From an uncultured Candidatus Saccharibacteria bacterium (GTDB lineage Bacteria > Patescibacteriota > Saccharimonadia > Saccharimonadales > 2-12-FULL-41-12), in contig CAZFPJ010000002.1 in assembly GCA_964521095.1 (NCBI GenBank), positions 85,108 to 149,107 of the forward strand: DNA of 64,000 nucleotides. The letters are read 5' to 3'. The notes beneath the pieces are model-generated. The model saw only the letters and a program-made list of their open reading frames with translations, was not told the DNA's origin and made no database searches. The translations under genes were made by a program, and so were the position numbers. Positions 2,910 through 61,821 of this stretch are shown here, in pieces; position 1 is the stretch's first letter, and every line of letters begins with the position of its first letter.

Positions 2910-2938
2910 AATTATGTATCAATATCAATATTTGTCAA
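2910..2938 (-). promoter_or_regulatory. candidate sigma70-type promoter for the acidic-protein gene pair
   Basis: Minus strand: TTGACA (2938-2933), 17-nt spacer, ATAATT (2915-2910), ~35 nt upstream of the ATG at 2874. Confidence 0.35.
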
Positions 2939-2973
2939 AATAAATACCTCTTTTTAAGGACAGATATTTATTT

Positions 2974-2994
2974 TGGTAGCGGGGGCAGGACTCG
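2974..2994 (-). repeat. 21-nt exact copy of the tRNA-Met 3' end (third copy)
   Basis: TGGTAGCGGGGGCAGGACTCG is identical to 3343-3363. In tRNA sense it is CGAGTCCTGCCCCCGCTACCA. Confidence 0.9.
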
Positions 2995-3161
2995 GTCACC
3001 TCCGGCGACCCCGTCGCAACATCTTTCAAAACAAGTTTTGAAGAGTTGACTCACTTGCGAACTGCCACCGGCAGTTCGCACCTCCGACCTTCTTAGCGTC
3101 GCAGGATGAATTAAACTCAGCACCAAGTAAAAGACCCCATCTTTCGATGAGGTCCGTTACT
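2995..3161 (-). mobile_element. candidate non-coding module, family 2, bounded by tRNA-Met 3'-end copies (miniature integrative element and/or structured RNA)
   Basis: Homologous to 56057-56215 next to tRNA-Arg. Shared hairpins: GCGAACTGCC/GGCAGTTCGC at 3057-3079, TTCAAAA-CAAG-TTTTGAA at 3025-3042, and GCGAC-CCC-GTCGC at 3005-3017. No credible ORF. Confidence 0.5.
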
Positions 3162-3179
3162 TGGTAGCGGGGGCAGGAC
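3162..3179 (-). repeat. 18-nt exact copy of the tRNA-Met 3' end (second copy)
   Basis: TGGTAGCGGGGGCAGGAC is identical to 3343-3360. In tRNA sense it is followed by a hairpin plus T-run (3154->3129) homologous to the tRNA's own terminator. Confidence 0.9.
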
Positions 3180-3342
3180 AGCGGGCTTCGCCCTTTTTCG
3201 CTTGTTCGCCAGAAAAATACCTCGTGCTTTCCTGGCTTCTCTGCGCTACACCGAACCTGTGGTTCGCTTGCGCTCACGCATCAGGTTCTCGTTCTAGCTC
3301 CGACAAAGAAAAAAGACCCATCCAAAGATGAGTCATTTTTCT
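3180..3342 (-). mobile_element. candidate non-coding module, family 1 (includes the tRNA-Met terminator hairpin at 3309-3334)
   Basis: Roughly 65-70% identical by eye over ~110 nt to the module downstream of tRNA-Lys(UUU), 31670-31797. Shared blocks: CGAGAACC, GGTTCGG, GCAGAGAA, GAAAGCAC, GGTATTTT. A 9-bp stem (3228-3236 / 3208-3216) covaries with its counterpart. Confidence 0.5.
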
Positions 3343-3417
3343 TGGTAGCGGGGGCAGGACTCGAACCTGCGACCTTGTGGTTATGAGCCACACGAGCTGC
3401 CGCTGCTCTACCCCGCA
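3343..3417 (-). tRNA. tRNA-Met (anticodon CAU), initiator-like
   Basis: 75-nt cloverleaf folded by hand: anticodon loop CTCATAA, T-arm GCAGG-TTCGAGT-CCTGC, encoded CCA. It has a 1:72 U-U mismatch and two G-C pairs next to the anticodon loop, resembling fMet tRNA. Confidence 0.85.
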
Positions 3418-3469
3418 ATAACTTAAGTGAGATTAAATTGTAACAAACAGAGGTGAGATTGTCAATTAC

Positions 3470-3865: not shown

Positions 3866-4141
3866 ACTTGTAGTATACCACGAATAAGCATAAAAGTAAA
3901 GAGATGGCTTGACATTATTGTAATGGTTATGTATAATTGATAAGCGTTAATTACAAAAAAATAAAAAAATAACAAAACTAAAAAGGAGCGCGTTAAAAGT
4001 GCTAAGTTACGAGCTATTGCCAACAGTCGACGAGAGTATATTGAAGGTCGACGAACTACTTGCTGGACTATAAGTTTATTTAGGTCCAAGACAGTCCTGC
4101 CGGAGCGCTCATAATAATGGGCGCTGAGTTAATTCTATAAC

Positions 4142-4181: not shown

Positions 4182-4258
4182 TGGTAGCGGCGAGTGGGCT
4201 TGAACCACTGACCTCAGGCTTATGAGTCCTGCGCTCTAACCAGCTGAGCTACGCCGCC
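4182..4258 (-). tRNA. tRNA with CAU anticodon, Ile2 (lysidine)-like or elongator Met
   Basis: 77-nt cloverleaf with encoded CCA. The body (GAGCGCAGGACTCATAAGCCTGAGGTCAGTGGTTCAAGCCCACTC) resembles E. coli tRNA-Ile2 more than elongator Met. tilS is present at 15049. Confidence 0.8.
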
Positions 4259-31551: not shown

Positions 31552-31627
31552 GGGCCTGTAGCTCAGTTGGTAGAGCAGCGGCCTTTTAAGCCGCGTGTCC
31601 CGGGTTCGAGCCCCGGCGGGCCCTCCA
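31552..31627 (+). tRNA. tRNA-Lys (anticodon UUU)
   Basis: 76-nt cloverleaf: anticodon loop CTTTTAA, T-arm CCGGG-TTCGAGC-CCCGG, encoded CCA. Confidence 0.9.
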
Positions 31628-31629
31628 AT

Positions 31630-31797
31630 TTTAGTACCCCTCGCCCAAGAGGGGTTTTAAAATTGGAGAATTTATCCGAGAACCCGAGCCTGCGCTAGCA
31701 GGGGTTCGGCGTAGGCGAGCAGAGAAAAGAAAGCACCTTGGGTATTTTCTTTTCGAGTGAGCCGAAGGAGCGACCGAATGTAATGAGGGAAAGCGAT
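31630..31797 (+). mobile_element. candidate non-coding module, family 1 (includes terminator hairpin 31636-31658)
   Basis: Lies between two exact 20-nt copies of the tRNA-Lys 3' end. Homologous to 3180-3342. Contains a 9-bp stem GAAAAGAAA (31724-31732) / TTTCTTTTC (31746-31754) with loop GCACCTTGGGTAT. Confidence 0.5.
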
Positions 31798-31817
31798 GCC
31801 CCGGCGGGCCCTCCAAT
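31798..31817 (+). repeat. 20-nt exact copy of the tRNA-Lys(UUU) 3' end
   Basis: GCCCCGGCGGGCCCTCCAAT is identical to 31610-31629. Confidence 0.9.
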
Positions 31818-31844: not shown

Positions 31845-31966
31845 GATTGGGAGATCTTGTAGAGATTCGAAGCTGGGACACGCAGTGTCTCGGGTGGAAT
31901 TGGATTATCTCAGTATCTCAACTCAGCCAATTCATAGACAAACCTAAGTTCTGATAAAATAGACAG

Positions 31967-56034: not shown

Positions 56035-56056
56035 TGGTACCCCGGGAGGGACTCGA
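56035..56056 (-). repeat. 22-nt exact copy of the tRNA-Arg(UCU) 3' end
   Basis: TGGTACCCCGGGAGGGACTCGA is identical to 56216-56237. Confidence 0.9.
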
Positions 56057-56215
56057 CCCACCTTCGGCAGGCCCGAAACTTCGCTATTGAAAACAAGTTT
56101 TCATCGGAAGATTTCCTTGCAAACTGCCACTGGCAGTTCTCACCCCGACTTTACGGTCGGAGGTTCATCTTGCAATCAATATAAATTTACTGGCCAAAAG
56201 GCCACAGAATTTACA
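56057..56215 (-). mobile_element. candidate non-coding module, family 2
   Basis: Homologous to 2995-3161. Shares AACTGCC-ACT-GGCAGTT (56122-56138), TGAAAA-CAAG-TTTTCA (56088-56103), and a hairpin TTCGG-CAGGC-CCGAA (56063-56077) at the position of GCGAC-CCC-GTCGC. Confidence 0.5.
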
Positions 56216-56292
56216 TGGTACCCCGGGAGGGACTCGAACCCCCGACCTTGACGTTAGAACCGTCTTGCTCTAATCCACTGAGCTACCGGGGC
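56216..56292 (-). tRNA. tRNA-Arg (anticodon UCU)
   Basis: 77 nt: anticodon loop GTTCTAA, T-arm GGGGG-TTCGAGT-CCCTC, encoded CCA. Confidence 0.85.
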
Positions 56293-56386: not shown

Positions 56387-56436
56387 AGGTTTCTTTAACA
56401 GAGGTAATTATAGCACGAATATTAAAAAGAGCTAAT

Positions 56437-61254: not shown

Positions 61255-61348
61255 AGTAATACAACTATAAAATTATAGATGGATAATGTCAATTCTAGGC
61301 TAGGAATAGTTTTATTTTTATGCTAGAATTACCTCTGTTGTTTTGTGC

Positions 61349-61426: not shown

Positions 61427-61503
61427 GGGCCAGTAGCTCAGCTGGTTAGAGCACCTGCCTCTTAAGCAGGGTGTCGAGGGTTCGAGTCCCTCCTGGCCCT
61501 CCA
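61427..61503 (+). tRNA. tRNA-Lys (anticodon CUU)
   Basis: 77 nt: anticodon stem-loop CCTGC-CTCTTAA-GCAGG, encoded CCA. It starts 1 nt after the end of tRNA-Arg. Confidence 0.9.
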
Positions 61504-61506
61504 AAA

Positions 61507-61671
61507 ATAGAACCGCCTTCCTGGCGGTTTTGTTTTTGGAACGCTTAAGGAAGAAAGCCAACTGCTTGGCTTTTGTGGGACTCGAACAGGCGGAGCGATG
61601 TCGAGCAATTCAGCGAGACCGCGAGCCGGGGTCGACAGCGAAAAGCAAAGCTTTTCGACTGGTGACTCGAA
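61507..61671 (+). mobile_element. candidate non-coding module (divergent; includes terminator 61511-61537)
   Basis: Lies between two exact 22-nt copies of the tRNA-Lys(CUU) 3' end. It contains an inverted copy of the T-loop region (GGGACTCGAAC, ~61578-61588) and the hairpin CGAAAAGC-AAA-GCTTTTCG. It shares the motif CAGnGAAAAGnAAAGC with family 1. Confidence 0.45.
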
Positions 61672-61693
61672 AGTCCCTCCTGGCCCTCCAAAA
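61672..61693 (+). repeat. 22-nt exact copy of the tRNA-Lys(CUU) 3' end
   Basis: AGTCCCTCCTGGCCCTCCAAAA is identical to 61485-61506. Confidence 0.9.
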
Positions 61694-61724: not shown

Positions 61725-61821
61725 GGAGCAGTGTGCTTTAGAACGCCCGACACGCCAAAAGGGCGTCGAGTCCCTCCCCTGATCGAATATGCCAGGATAG
61801 ACTCAAATCTAACTTGATATA

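Follow-up and report, generated by a model that had tools for sequence, protein, structure and literature searches.

We found a large superfamily of small (~180-200 nucleotides), non-coding, structured units that are associated with tRNA genes in Saccharibacteria-type bacteria of the Candidate Phyla Radiation (CPR)/Patescibacteria and that have not been described before; no description of such tRNA-associated units was found in the searchable literature. The starting point was a stretch of 64,000 nucleotides (nt) from an uncultured Candidatus Saccharibacteria bacterium (assembly GCA_964521095.1, contig CAZFPJ010000002.1, positions 85,108 to 149,107), hereafter the window. In the window, a tRNA-Met(CAU) gene is followed by two units of ~185 nt, the first closed by an 18-nt and the second by a 21-nt exact repeat of the tRNA 3' end. 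The anatomy of the units, their family membership, their fold and their tRNA-specific tails and antisense segments were observed directly, as were arrays of units and cargo genes between them. The recurrence of the tRNA-Met 3' end together with the modules was seen in Saccharibacteria/Saccharimonadales genomes. The original prediction for the Met locus, made from the letters and their open reading frames (ORFs), had proposed that two different small elements accreted in tandem at a single tRNA, and this was borne out.

Units beside four tRNA genes of the window

The tRNA-Met(CAT) gene at 3343-3417 (minus strand) was called by both ARAGORN and Rfam. The tRNA 3' end, GTCCTGCCCCCGCTACCA, occurs exactly in three copies in the window (3343-3360, 3162-3179 and 2974-2991, all on the minus strand), where 0.02 are expected by chance, and three matches were reached in 0 of 100 shuffles. 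The third copy is longer, at 21 nt (2994->2974). A 58-nt block consisting of a hairpin and the tRNA end is present three times at the locus with 64-100% identity, and terminator-like hairpins with T-runs stand after the tRNA (3334->3315) and after the first tail (3155->3132). The intact tRNA, the hairpins, the 18-nt and 21-nt copies and their course from the T-loop through CCA had all been predicted, and the junctions and tails were found as claimed. The claim that none of the sequence separating the repeats is related to the tRNA did not quite hold, as sense (CACAGGTTCG and AGGTCGGAGGT) and antisense (CGAGAACCTG and CCTGCGAC) segments of the T-arm are present there.

We searched behind each tRNA of the window for copies of its own 3' end. 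Five units were found at four of the nine window tRNAs (Met, Lys-UUU, Arg-UCU, and Lys-CUU). Their tails are 100% identical to their own tRNA over 18-22 nt, and the distance from the end of the tRNA to the end of the tail is 181-188 nt in all five. The two units at the Met locus do belong to different families, as had been predicted, and each of families 1 and 2 is found at two of the window tRNAs, always with the tail of the local tRNA. The family-2 core at tRNA-Met (3082->2991) has a paralogue at tRNA-Arg(UCU) (56144->56053), where the order is hairpin, family-2 module, and 22-nt tail; family 1 has a paralogue after tRNA-Lys(UUU). Since families are found at two tRNAs each and the tail is always local, a simple remnant of one element with a single attachment (att) specificity cannot account for the units. 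At both Lys loci of the window, a terminator lies between the tRNA and the module.

From alignments of the window units and about 130 metagenome instances listed, we drew a common plan of the unit. On the tRNA strand, the tRNA is followed by a terminator, the antisense of the uninterrupted T-arm (roughly positions 44-62), a short loop or small hairpin, the sense copy of positions ~44-54, the module, the sense copy from the T-loop to CCA, and usually another terminator. The size of the unit is roughly constant, at about 160-220 nt, and the module core measures ~90 nt in family 2. The right junction of family 2 is sharp: identity to the local tRNA extends over 21-22 nt, from CCA back to C56/U55, and the junction position 55/56 is held in almost every downstream-type case among the matches listed (Leu, Lys, His, Pro, Val, Gln, and Arg tRNAs). 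The tails of families 1 and 3 are exactly 18 nt long (positions 59-76). The dinucleotide directly 5' of the module is always G-T. On reading the junctions GGT/GAGAAC and GTGAC/C, no bulge-helix-bulge (BHB) motif was seen to form.

The antisense T-arm is specific to its neighbour. Its longest exact match averages 7.7 nt to the local tRNA versus 2.7 nt to non-cognate tRNAs. When its complementarity to the real tRNA was compared with that to the adjacent sense copy, the real tRNA was the better partner in 19 of 28 units, an equal one in 9, and a worse one in none.

The 18-nt tails (positions 59-76) had raised the idea of a copy of mature tRNA, made by a reverse transcriptase that stops at 1-methyladenosine 58. 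This idea was weakened by the 21-22 nt tails of family 2 and by duplications that run through the terminator at loci L149, L177, and L190. A snap-back complementary-DNA source of the antisense arm was rejected, as the antisense segment is uninterrupted whereas the sense copy holds the module.

Conserved folds at many tRNA isotypes

The family-2 core consists of three hairpins, namely P2 (GAGAACUGCC-AGU-GGCAGUUCGC), a long and variable P3, and P4 (GGGGUCGC-GGAAC-GUGAC). In a seed alignment of 26 sequences (MAFFT/RNAalifold), compensatory double changes were found in 24 of the 35 predicted pairs. The covariance model made from this alignment, denoted R1, recovered just the two copies that were expected in the window, at 93.7 and 84.2 bits; among the matches listed, 100 metagenome loci yielded at least 107 copies at E<1e-6. 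Across 101 distinct family-2 sequences, 95.3% of cells were paired versus 72.8% in column shuffles (reached in 0 of 500 shuffles), a pairing figure that, like the others for this set, is somewhat inflated by an alignment fitted to the model and with which the independent MAFFT/RNAalifold seed result agrees. In the same set, 33 of 35 pairs had changed on both sides, and pairing fell to 25-42% when the partners were slid by 1-3 columns.

One G·U pair in P4 was kept in 81 of 92 family-2 sequences. G·U is far commoner than A·C, which indicates that the selected fold is that of the tRNA-sense strand in single-stranded form, as RNA or single-stranded DNA (ssDNA). Family 1 has fewer members, and its central hairpin covaries as GGAGC/GCUCC, AAAGC/GCUUU, GGUGC/GCACC, and GAUGC/GCAUC. 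Family 3 and variants of family 2 have a P4-like hairpin in common. The modules are conserved folds and make up a strongly supported structured family without an Rfam entry. With Rfam 15 at gathering thresholds, the window and 15 module-bearing loci gave tRNA matches only, and at E values up to 10 the Met locus gave tRNAs and noise, with no match to a group I intron or an omega-RNA.

To follow the Met locus across species, we scanned species-representative genomes with the 3' 25-mer of tRNA-Met. Comparison of orthologous tRNA-fMet loci, which the original prediction had proposed, revealed loci with no unit, one unit, and two stacked units. Family 1 was found behind tRNA-fMet in L014, L033, L037, L044, L092, L109, and L116, among others, and family 2, confirmed with the model, in L020, L026, L029, L034, L065, L041, and L054. 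Other loci carried different variants or two units stacked (L029 and L033), and in about a third of species the locus had no unit. Many tails at tRNA-fMet loci were without the 3' (CCA) end. Between species, only the tRNA and the module could be aligned at the DNA level. A conserved motif of ~30 nt, CCTCTGTTATTTAGGTTCGAGTCTTACTTGGT, lies about 90 nt past tRNA-fMet in L025, L085, L088, L110, L020, and L065, and even 'empty' loci carry it. In this motif, a T-loop-like segment is joined to the antisense of ACCA and the trailer; judging by its complementarity, it could pair with the CCA end and the trailer.

We then scanned metagenomes for family 2 by the pattern of P2 and found at least 130 instances at no fewer than 120 loci, with more than 110 distinct sequence variants. 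The same architecture was present in more than 100 independent assemblies, which excludes an assembly artefact. Among the metagenome matches listed, 12 isotypes were observed (Arg, Gln, Glu, Gly, His, Leu, Lys, Pro, Ser, Val, Phe, and Trp); with the Met locus of the window, family 2 is found at 13 isotypes or more. Three scans of viral contigs (2.9 million) gave zero matches to the modules.

Of the 130 instances listed, downstream units of type A, the kind present in the window, made up 31 clear and 23 probable cases, and upstream, mirror-image units (type B) made up 39; 21 were others, and 16 lay at contig edges. A type B unit is laid out as promoter, leader, tRNA 5' fragment, module, a few further tRNA nucleotides, antisense fold-back, spacer, and intact tRNA. 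Among the matches listed, the type B module followed raw tRNA position ~18 (10 cases), 23-26 (16), 38 (3), 51-54 (6), or 62-65 (3), which places the insertion points in the D-loop, at the end of the D-stem, or in the T-loop. Modules were also found in tandem or nested after GGGGU of another module's P4. A same-strand tRNA was nearby for 93 of the 130 instances listed, and some intact-looking tails had no tRNA in the DNA searched. In 0 of the 130 were both tRNA halves intact.

Two family-2 units (L161 and L193) end in ...CCCACCAGCTCCACCA, which resembles the 3' end of transfer-messenger RNA (tmRNA, ssrA); ARAGORN found no tmRNA there. At the tRNA-Gln(CUG) loci L135, L136, L148, and L178, the leader is complementary to the CCA end and trailer of the tRNA, with compensatory changes between loci (CACTACCTGGCT/AGCCAGGTAGCG, ACTTCC/GGAAGT, and CTCTCC/GGAGA), and a 22-nt copy of the tRNA 3' end lies just 12 nt past the tRNA.

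Signs of turnover, cargo, and neighbouring genes

In L149, L177, and L190, the duplicated segment passes CCA and extends through the whole terminator, giving at least 40 identical nt. The L213 unit is an orthologue of that in L177, with the same tRNA-Val and the same diverged left part, but has unrelated sequence after CCA. This contrast indicates that the tail region has been homogenised against the adjacent tRNA, and homogenisation by gene conversion would account for perfect tails beside diverged cores. From these alignments, the identity of the tails appears to be kept by gene conversion rather than to reflect recent integration.

Arrays with cargo were found at two loci. In L144 (11163-12700), five copies of a tRNA-Lys end, GGCCCTCCA, lie within 1.4 kb, where 0.1 are expected. 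The array holds three units, of which two are near-identical and one is truncated inside P3, and single genes between repeats encode a GNAT acetyltransferase and a small Zn-ribbon-like protein. The tRNA itself is absent from the 14 kb searched. A 165-amino-acid (aa) protein with resolvase-type and IS30-type helix-turn-helix domains, and without a catalytic domain, is encoded next to the first repeat. The order in L121 is tRNA-Lys, unit 1, two cargo genes, a decayed tRNA end, a terminator, and unit 2; reading of the translations alone suggests that the cargo is hydrolase-like and racemase-like.

No protein family was seen more than three times in the 145 ORFs lying up to 2.5 kb from modules, and tyrosine integrases were not enriched. 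Large serine recombinases were found at one locus type (L148/L178), where the 3' end of the gene overlaps tRNA-Gln on the opposite strand. The protein in L178 (312-1850, minus strand; same place in L148) has 512 aa with Resolvase and Recombinase domains and converges on tRNA-Gln. Called from its first start codon, the gene also overlaps an extra copy of the tRNA 3' end on the opposite strand, and a second att-like copy was not found within 12 kb. In L124, a LAGLIDADG-like ORF (23-589) ends at the start of a tRNA-Ser gene, and a 132-aa ORF (1373-1771) with a PD-(D/E)xK-like motif lies between two tRNA-Ser genes, both assignments being readings of the translations.

The window is a segment of bacterial chromosome with ~44% GC, housekeeping genes, and nine scattered tRNAs. 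Genes for FtsH, MurJ, LepA, DnaK/DnaJ/GrpE, RecA, RecX, RuvABC, ComEC, RNase Y, and type IV pilus proteins were read in it. An origin of the window from a phage was ruled out by the housekeeping genes, and the sole match to phage DNA was a tRNA. No integrase (Phage_integrase), transposase, or reverse-transcriptase domain was found at the Pfam level in any of the window's 53 ORFs with 150 aa or more, in line with the original prediction that no integrase is encoded in the 64 kb. Likewise, TnpB, IscB, IS110, and Cas genes were neither present in the window nor recurrent near modules elsewhere, and no IntI integrase or attI site was found in the window or in the sampled ORFs of L144. The ~370 nt that make up the Met-locus modules contain no promoter-like sites; a strong promoter stands before the tRNA. 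In close relatives, contigs end exactly at the repeats (L241 at its contig end, L243 at its contig start); these short-read contigs stop at tRNA-Met2 and directly after tail 2. Repeats of this kind therefore fragment assemblies of the clade. The coordinates of the window features are given in Table 1.

Just downstream of the Met unit array, two small ORFs on the minus strand (1997-2437 and 2449-2874) are paralogues with about 52% identity, are almost without homologues in 5.8 billion proteins, and may be cargo of the array. A second tRNA-Met is located at 4182-4258. Downstream of it, the stretch 4093-4117 (plus strand) is inverted and 72% complementary to the tail region of tRNA-Met1 at 2968-2992 (AGTCCTGCC...), which may be chance or a very decayed inverted remnant. 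The motif ACCTCTGTT occurs three times in the window (0.46 expected), at 3446-3454 (minus), 56397-56405 (minus), and 61331-61339 (plus), each time in or beside the -10 region of a tRNA promoter (tRNA-Met1, tRNA-Gly, and tRNA-Arg-UCG). A near-variant is present at tRNA-His and similar motifs precede tRNAs in L125, L134, and L135; the motif may be a clade-specific promoter-proximal element.

Table 1 Features of the unit-bearing tRNA loci in the window.
Feature	Position	Strand	Basis
tRNA-Met promoter TTGACA-17-TACAAT, near-consensus, contains ACCTCTGTT	3437..3465	-	sequence
Intact tRNA-Met(CAU), initiator-like, U1:U72 mismatch	3343..3417	-	ARAGORN, Rfam
Terminator 1: hairpin and T-run; A-tract and T-tract also pair with the CCA end	3305..3342	-	
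Unit 1, antisense T-arm segment CGAGAACCTG	3282..3291	-	sequence reading
Unit 1, sense T-arm 5' half CACAGGTTCG, roughly tRNA positions 48-57	3252..3261	-	
Unit 1, family-1 structured core between T-loop positions 57 and 59; central hairpin covaries	3180..3251	-	
Unit 1, tail: exact tRNA-Met positions 59-76, 18 nt	3162..3179	-	
Terminator 2, like the tRNA-proximal terminator of other species (L016, L075)	3122..3161	-	
Unit 2, antisense T-arm segment GAGTTTAATTCATCCTGCGAC	3098..3118	-	
CCTGCGAC, exact antisense of tRNA positions 46-53, inside the unit 2 antisense segment	3105->3098	-	
Unit 2, sense variable loop and T-stem 5' strand AGGTCGGAGGT, roughly positions 44-54	3080..3090	-	
Unit 2, family-2 core, hairpins P2-P3-P4; R1 84.2 bits, E=1.3e-16	2991..3082	-	
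Unit 2, tail: exact tRNA-Met positions 56-76, 21 nt	2974..2994	-	
AT-rich hairpin after tail 2, overlapping the -35 box of the downstream gene's promoter	2934..2973	-	
tRNA-Lys(UUU)	31552..31627	+	ARAGORN
Family-1 unit at tRNA-Lys(UUU): antisense and sense T-arm segments and core	31662..31797	+	
Tail: exact tRNA-Lys(UUU) positions 59-76, 18 nt, then terminator	31798..31815	+	
Putative degenerate second unit at tRNA-Lys(UUU): antisense T-arm GATTCGAAGCTGGGACAC, loop, sense GTGTCTCGGGT, short hairpin; without tail	31865..31934	+	inference from sequence reading
tRNA-Arg(UCU)	56216..56292	-	ARAGORN
Antisense T-arm GATGAACCTCCGACC, loop, sense GTCGGGGT at tRNA-Arg(UCU)	56142..56169	-	
Family-2 core at tRNA-Arg(UCU); R1 93.7 bits, E=1.1e-18	56053..56144	-	
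Tail: exact tRNA-Arg(UCU) positions 55-76, 22 nt	56035..56056	-	
tRNA-Lys(CUU)	61427..61503	+	ARAGORN
Family-3 unit at tRNA-Lys(CUU): antisense T-arm GGGACTCGAAC and P4-like hairpin in common with family-2 variants	61536..61672	+	
Tail: exact tRNA-Lys(CUU) positions 59-76, 18 nt, then terminator	61673..61690	+	
Putative degenerate third unit at tRNA-Lys(CUU): fold-back of T-arm-like sequence, decayed tail, without module	61727..61790	+	inference from sequence reading

Explanations of the units and comparison with known systems

We infer from these observations that the units may be mobile. The reading we favour, to which we give slightly less than an even chance, is that they are non-autonomous, structure-dependent recombinational elements which accrete at tRNA genes and depend on an enzyme acting in trans. 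A unit is a partial copy of the neighbouring tRNA in which the T-loop (in upstream units, the D-loop or D-stem) is broken at a fixed nucleotide by a multi-hairpin module. In a single-stranded, tRNA-sense form, which may be read-through RNA or ssDNA, the antisense segment would pair with the two halves of the T-arm. Such pairing would close the module into a multi-way junction and leave the last ~14 nt, comprising the acceptor 3' strand and CCA, free. Units would arise and stack through recombination of the tRNA-identical tail with the tRNA gene. This recombination may be site-specific or of the short-homology Campbell type, the candidate enzymes being a site-specific recombinase or RecA in naturally competent cells. 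Each event would restore an intact tRNA and leave a direct repeat, gene conversion with the adjacent tRNA would keep the tail identical, and the conserved fold would be required for the recombination process. The tails could double as secondary attachment sites that collect further units and small cargo-gene cassettes. We count in favour of this reading the window tails that match their own tRNAs, the varying content of the tRNA-fMet locus between species, the many isotypes and the fixed junction of family 2, the locally matched antisense arm, the covarying fold, the cargo cassettes bounded by tRNA-Lys repeats, the signs of gene conversion, the presence of RecA, RuvABC, and ComEC in the window, the nested, tandem, and near-identical duplicated units, the contig breaks at the loci, and the modules without a promoter.

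Several points weigh against mobility of this kind. Recombinase, transposase, and reverse transcriptase were all unfound in the 64-kb window, no protein family recurs beside the modules, and just 2 of 145 neighbouring ORFs are large serine recombinases. The relatives compared are separate species, with DNA alignable just at the tRNA and the modules. The copies that share a genome are old, with an identity of ~75% and compensatory changes, a pattern that looks more like the outcome of long purifying selection on a functional RNA than of recent transposition. A double-stranded circle of 185 bp is implausible, and the excised form would therefore be single-stranded or RNA. Finally, the favoured reading leaves unexplained how a unit gains sense and antisense copies of each new target tRNA. 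A bolder form of it, less likely than not but with a substantial chance in our view, holds that the units are a new class of tRNA-embedded mobile elements, specific to ultra-small CPR bacteria, that are active as a folded single strand (RNA or imported ssDNA) and provide an integron-like platform for cassettes. The module, the antisense segment acting as splint or guide, and the free tail would then mimic an interrupted tRNA and make the T- or D-loop of any tRNA gene a target for recombination, and single-gene cassettes could be captured without an element-encoded recombinase.

The units might instead serve the host, which is the main rival reading but one we regard as rather unlikely. As a cis-encoded trailer RNA made by terminator read-through, a unit would help to mature tRNAs or control their quality, or would serve as a decoy or sponge that draws off enzymes or toxins specific for the T-arm or the CCA end; its antisense T-arm would pair with the module-flanking halves or with the real upstream tRNA, and its free tail would mimic the tRNA 3' end. 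The very strong covariation and the conserved, strand-specific G·U pair fit such a role, as do modules that are better kept between species than any flanking DNA, paralogues within one genome that are old yet structurally intact, and antisense arms that favour the real tRNA over the adjacent sense copy. In addition, the orientation is always tRNA-sense, a terminator follows most tails, and the tails in the window are perfectly conserved. However, presence and family identity vary at the orthologous tRNA-fMet locus, with about a third of species lacking a unit, many tails are decayed, and nested, truncated, and duplicated copies and cargo-interleaved arrays occur. The units also lack their own promoter and are separated from the tRNA by a good terminator, and the mirror-image upstream units with 5' fragments fit poorly into one function. 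The original prediction had likened the units to remnants of cis-mobilizable elements (CIMEs), with the attL/attR footprint of tyrosine-integrase elements. On this view they would be classical att debris, the decayed attP arms of tyrosine- or serine-recombinase islands or prophages after internal deletion. Part of this stood, namely accretion at an att-like site in a tRNA and tails that flank cargo genes in other genomes (L144 and L121), which fits tails as recombination sites. The direct repeats from the T-loop to CCA, the stacking at one tRNA, the large serine recombinase gene abutting a unit-bearing tRNA-Gln locus (L148 and L178), and the tRNA-like debris common behind tRNA-fMet in the clade are further points for it. 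The part that did not stand is that these are decayed remnants of tyrosine-integrase elements, and debris of this kind is improbable: a compensatorily covarying three-hairpin fold with a conserved G·U pair is unexpected of decaying DNA, protein-binding arms, or integrase arm sites. One module family at 13 isotypes with matching local tails and antisense arms, mirror-image units, and tails apparently kept by gene conversion speak against it as well. The constant unit size of about 160-220 nt, the lack of any match in the viral contigs, and the window without an integrase also argue against debris.

A guide-RNA-like role is very unlikely, even though the layout invites it. Here the module would be a protein-binding scaffold and the tail, or the upstream 5' fragment, a guide for an RNA-guided nuclease or recombinase homing to the tRNA gene, as with a TnpB/IscB omega-RNA or an IS110 bridge RNA. 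A scaffold of ~90-130 nt is indeed followed by a target-identical 3' segment of 14-22 nt and a terminator, the conserved T-loop TTCGA stands directly before the matched target segment in the manner of a target-adjacent motif, and the element also holds a contiguous antisense of the uninterrupted target. Against this, TnpB, IscB, IS110, and Cas genes were found neither in the window nor recurring near modules, no omega-RNA or other Rfam family was matched, and the same scaffold would have to serve guides at either end. Least probable of all, and hardly credible, are intron-like intervening sequences in the T- or D-loop of functional tRNAs, spliced or excised. The fixed nucleotide of the T-loop or D-arm, the constant sense orientation, and the unusual richness of Patescibacteria in tRNA introns (PMC13011429) speak for the idea. 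Against it, both tRNA halves were intact in none of the 130 instances listed, an intact copy of the same tRNA usually adjoins where the DNA searched includes the surroundings, and a group I core and a recognisable BHB motif are absent. The intron idea is largely refuted. Removal of the modules in silico never gave a stand-alone complete tRNA; apparent cases were joined to the neighbouring intact tRNA.

If the units are mobile, a dedicated recombination system that is very small and based on structure resides at the tRNA genes of the smallest bacterial genomes, with a logic of tRNA regeneration, tails kept identical via gene conversion, stacking, and cassette capture. Such a system would explain how streamlined, naturally competent episymbionts in which no mobile-element machinery is obvious can gain and shuffle genes. 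If the units are functional RNAs, they add to the RNAs linked to tRNAs a class of regulators or decoys that is both new and abundant, present at 4 of 9 tRNAs in the window. Either way, a strongly supported structured family is absent from Rfam, the units break assemblies at tRNA loci, and their partial tRNA copies can mislead tRNA annotation. The covariance model R1 offers a direct handle for surveys and for experiments in cultivable Saccharibacteria.

We compared the units with known systems. The T-loop is one known class of integrase crossover site in tRNA genes, as Williams reportedly described in 2002 (cited in PMC9897764). Like tRNA integrative elements and CIMEs, the units form direct repeats of the tRNA 3' segment from the T-loop, as seen at all four window loci; the element copy restores the tRNA, different elements stand in tandem, small ones are without an integrase, and some arrays contain cargo. 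They differ in their size of ~185 nt, a covarying single-strand fold, an antisense T-arm that is always present, and mirror-image forms with 5' fragments. One att specificity per family would be expected of integrative elements, whereas family 2 is found at 13 isotypes, and no linked integrase family was found near the modules. Integron attC sites are conserved in secondary structure rather than in sequence, consist of imperfect inverted repeats that fold in one strand, and bound single-gene cassettes. The conserved single-strand fold of the units, the cassette-like arrays in L144 and L121, and the proposed crossover at a GTT-like core (G-T/T of the T-loop) bear some resemblance to them. However, the units come without IntI or attI, are built of tRNA sequence beside tRNA genes, have a large module within one arm instead of at the apex, and mostly carry no cassette.

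Repetitive extragenic palindromic (REP) sequences, bacterial interspersed mosaic elements (BIMEs), miniature inverted-repeat transposable elements (MITEs), and similar intergenic repeats are small, non-coding, hairpin-forming, multi-copy, and non-autonomous. The units share these properties but are strictly tied to tRNAs and carry target-derived sense and antisense segments. Unlike MITEs, their inverted repeats are derived from the target (T-arm), the 'duplication' spans 18-65 nt, paralogues are ~75% identical, and neither classical terminal inverted repeats nor a short target duplication is present.

Disrupted tRNA genes of archaea include non-canonical introns, split and permuted tRNAs, and fragments left by mobile elements (PMC3293823, PMC3218864). 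They resemble the units in that tRNA fragments adjoin a tRNA, be it intact or interrupted, that the D-arm and the T-arm receive insertions, and that mobile elements have been proposed to play a part. The units, in contrast, are bacterial and lack a BHB or splicing-endonuclease context, their interrupted copies are never complete, and their inserts form a structured family. In Patescibacteria, self-splicing group I introns occupy the anticodon loop of functional tRNAs (PMC13011429). These belong to the same phylum and likewise involve tRNA genes targeted by selfish or structured RNA elements, whereas the units are ~90-nt cores in partial tRNA copies without a group I signature. The omega-RNAs of TnpB/IscB and the guide RNAs of TldR (PMC10705468) consist of a scaffold followed by a short segment identical to the adjoining genomic target, a geometry that the units resemble; the units differ in having no associated nuclease found and no Rfam match, 'guides' at either end, and an antisense copy. 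Each of the known systems compared has one or two features in common with the units and fails on others.

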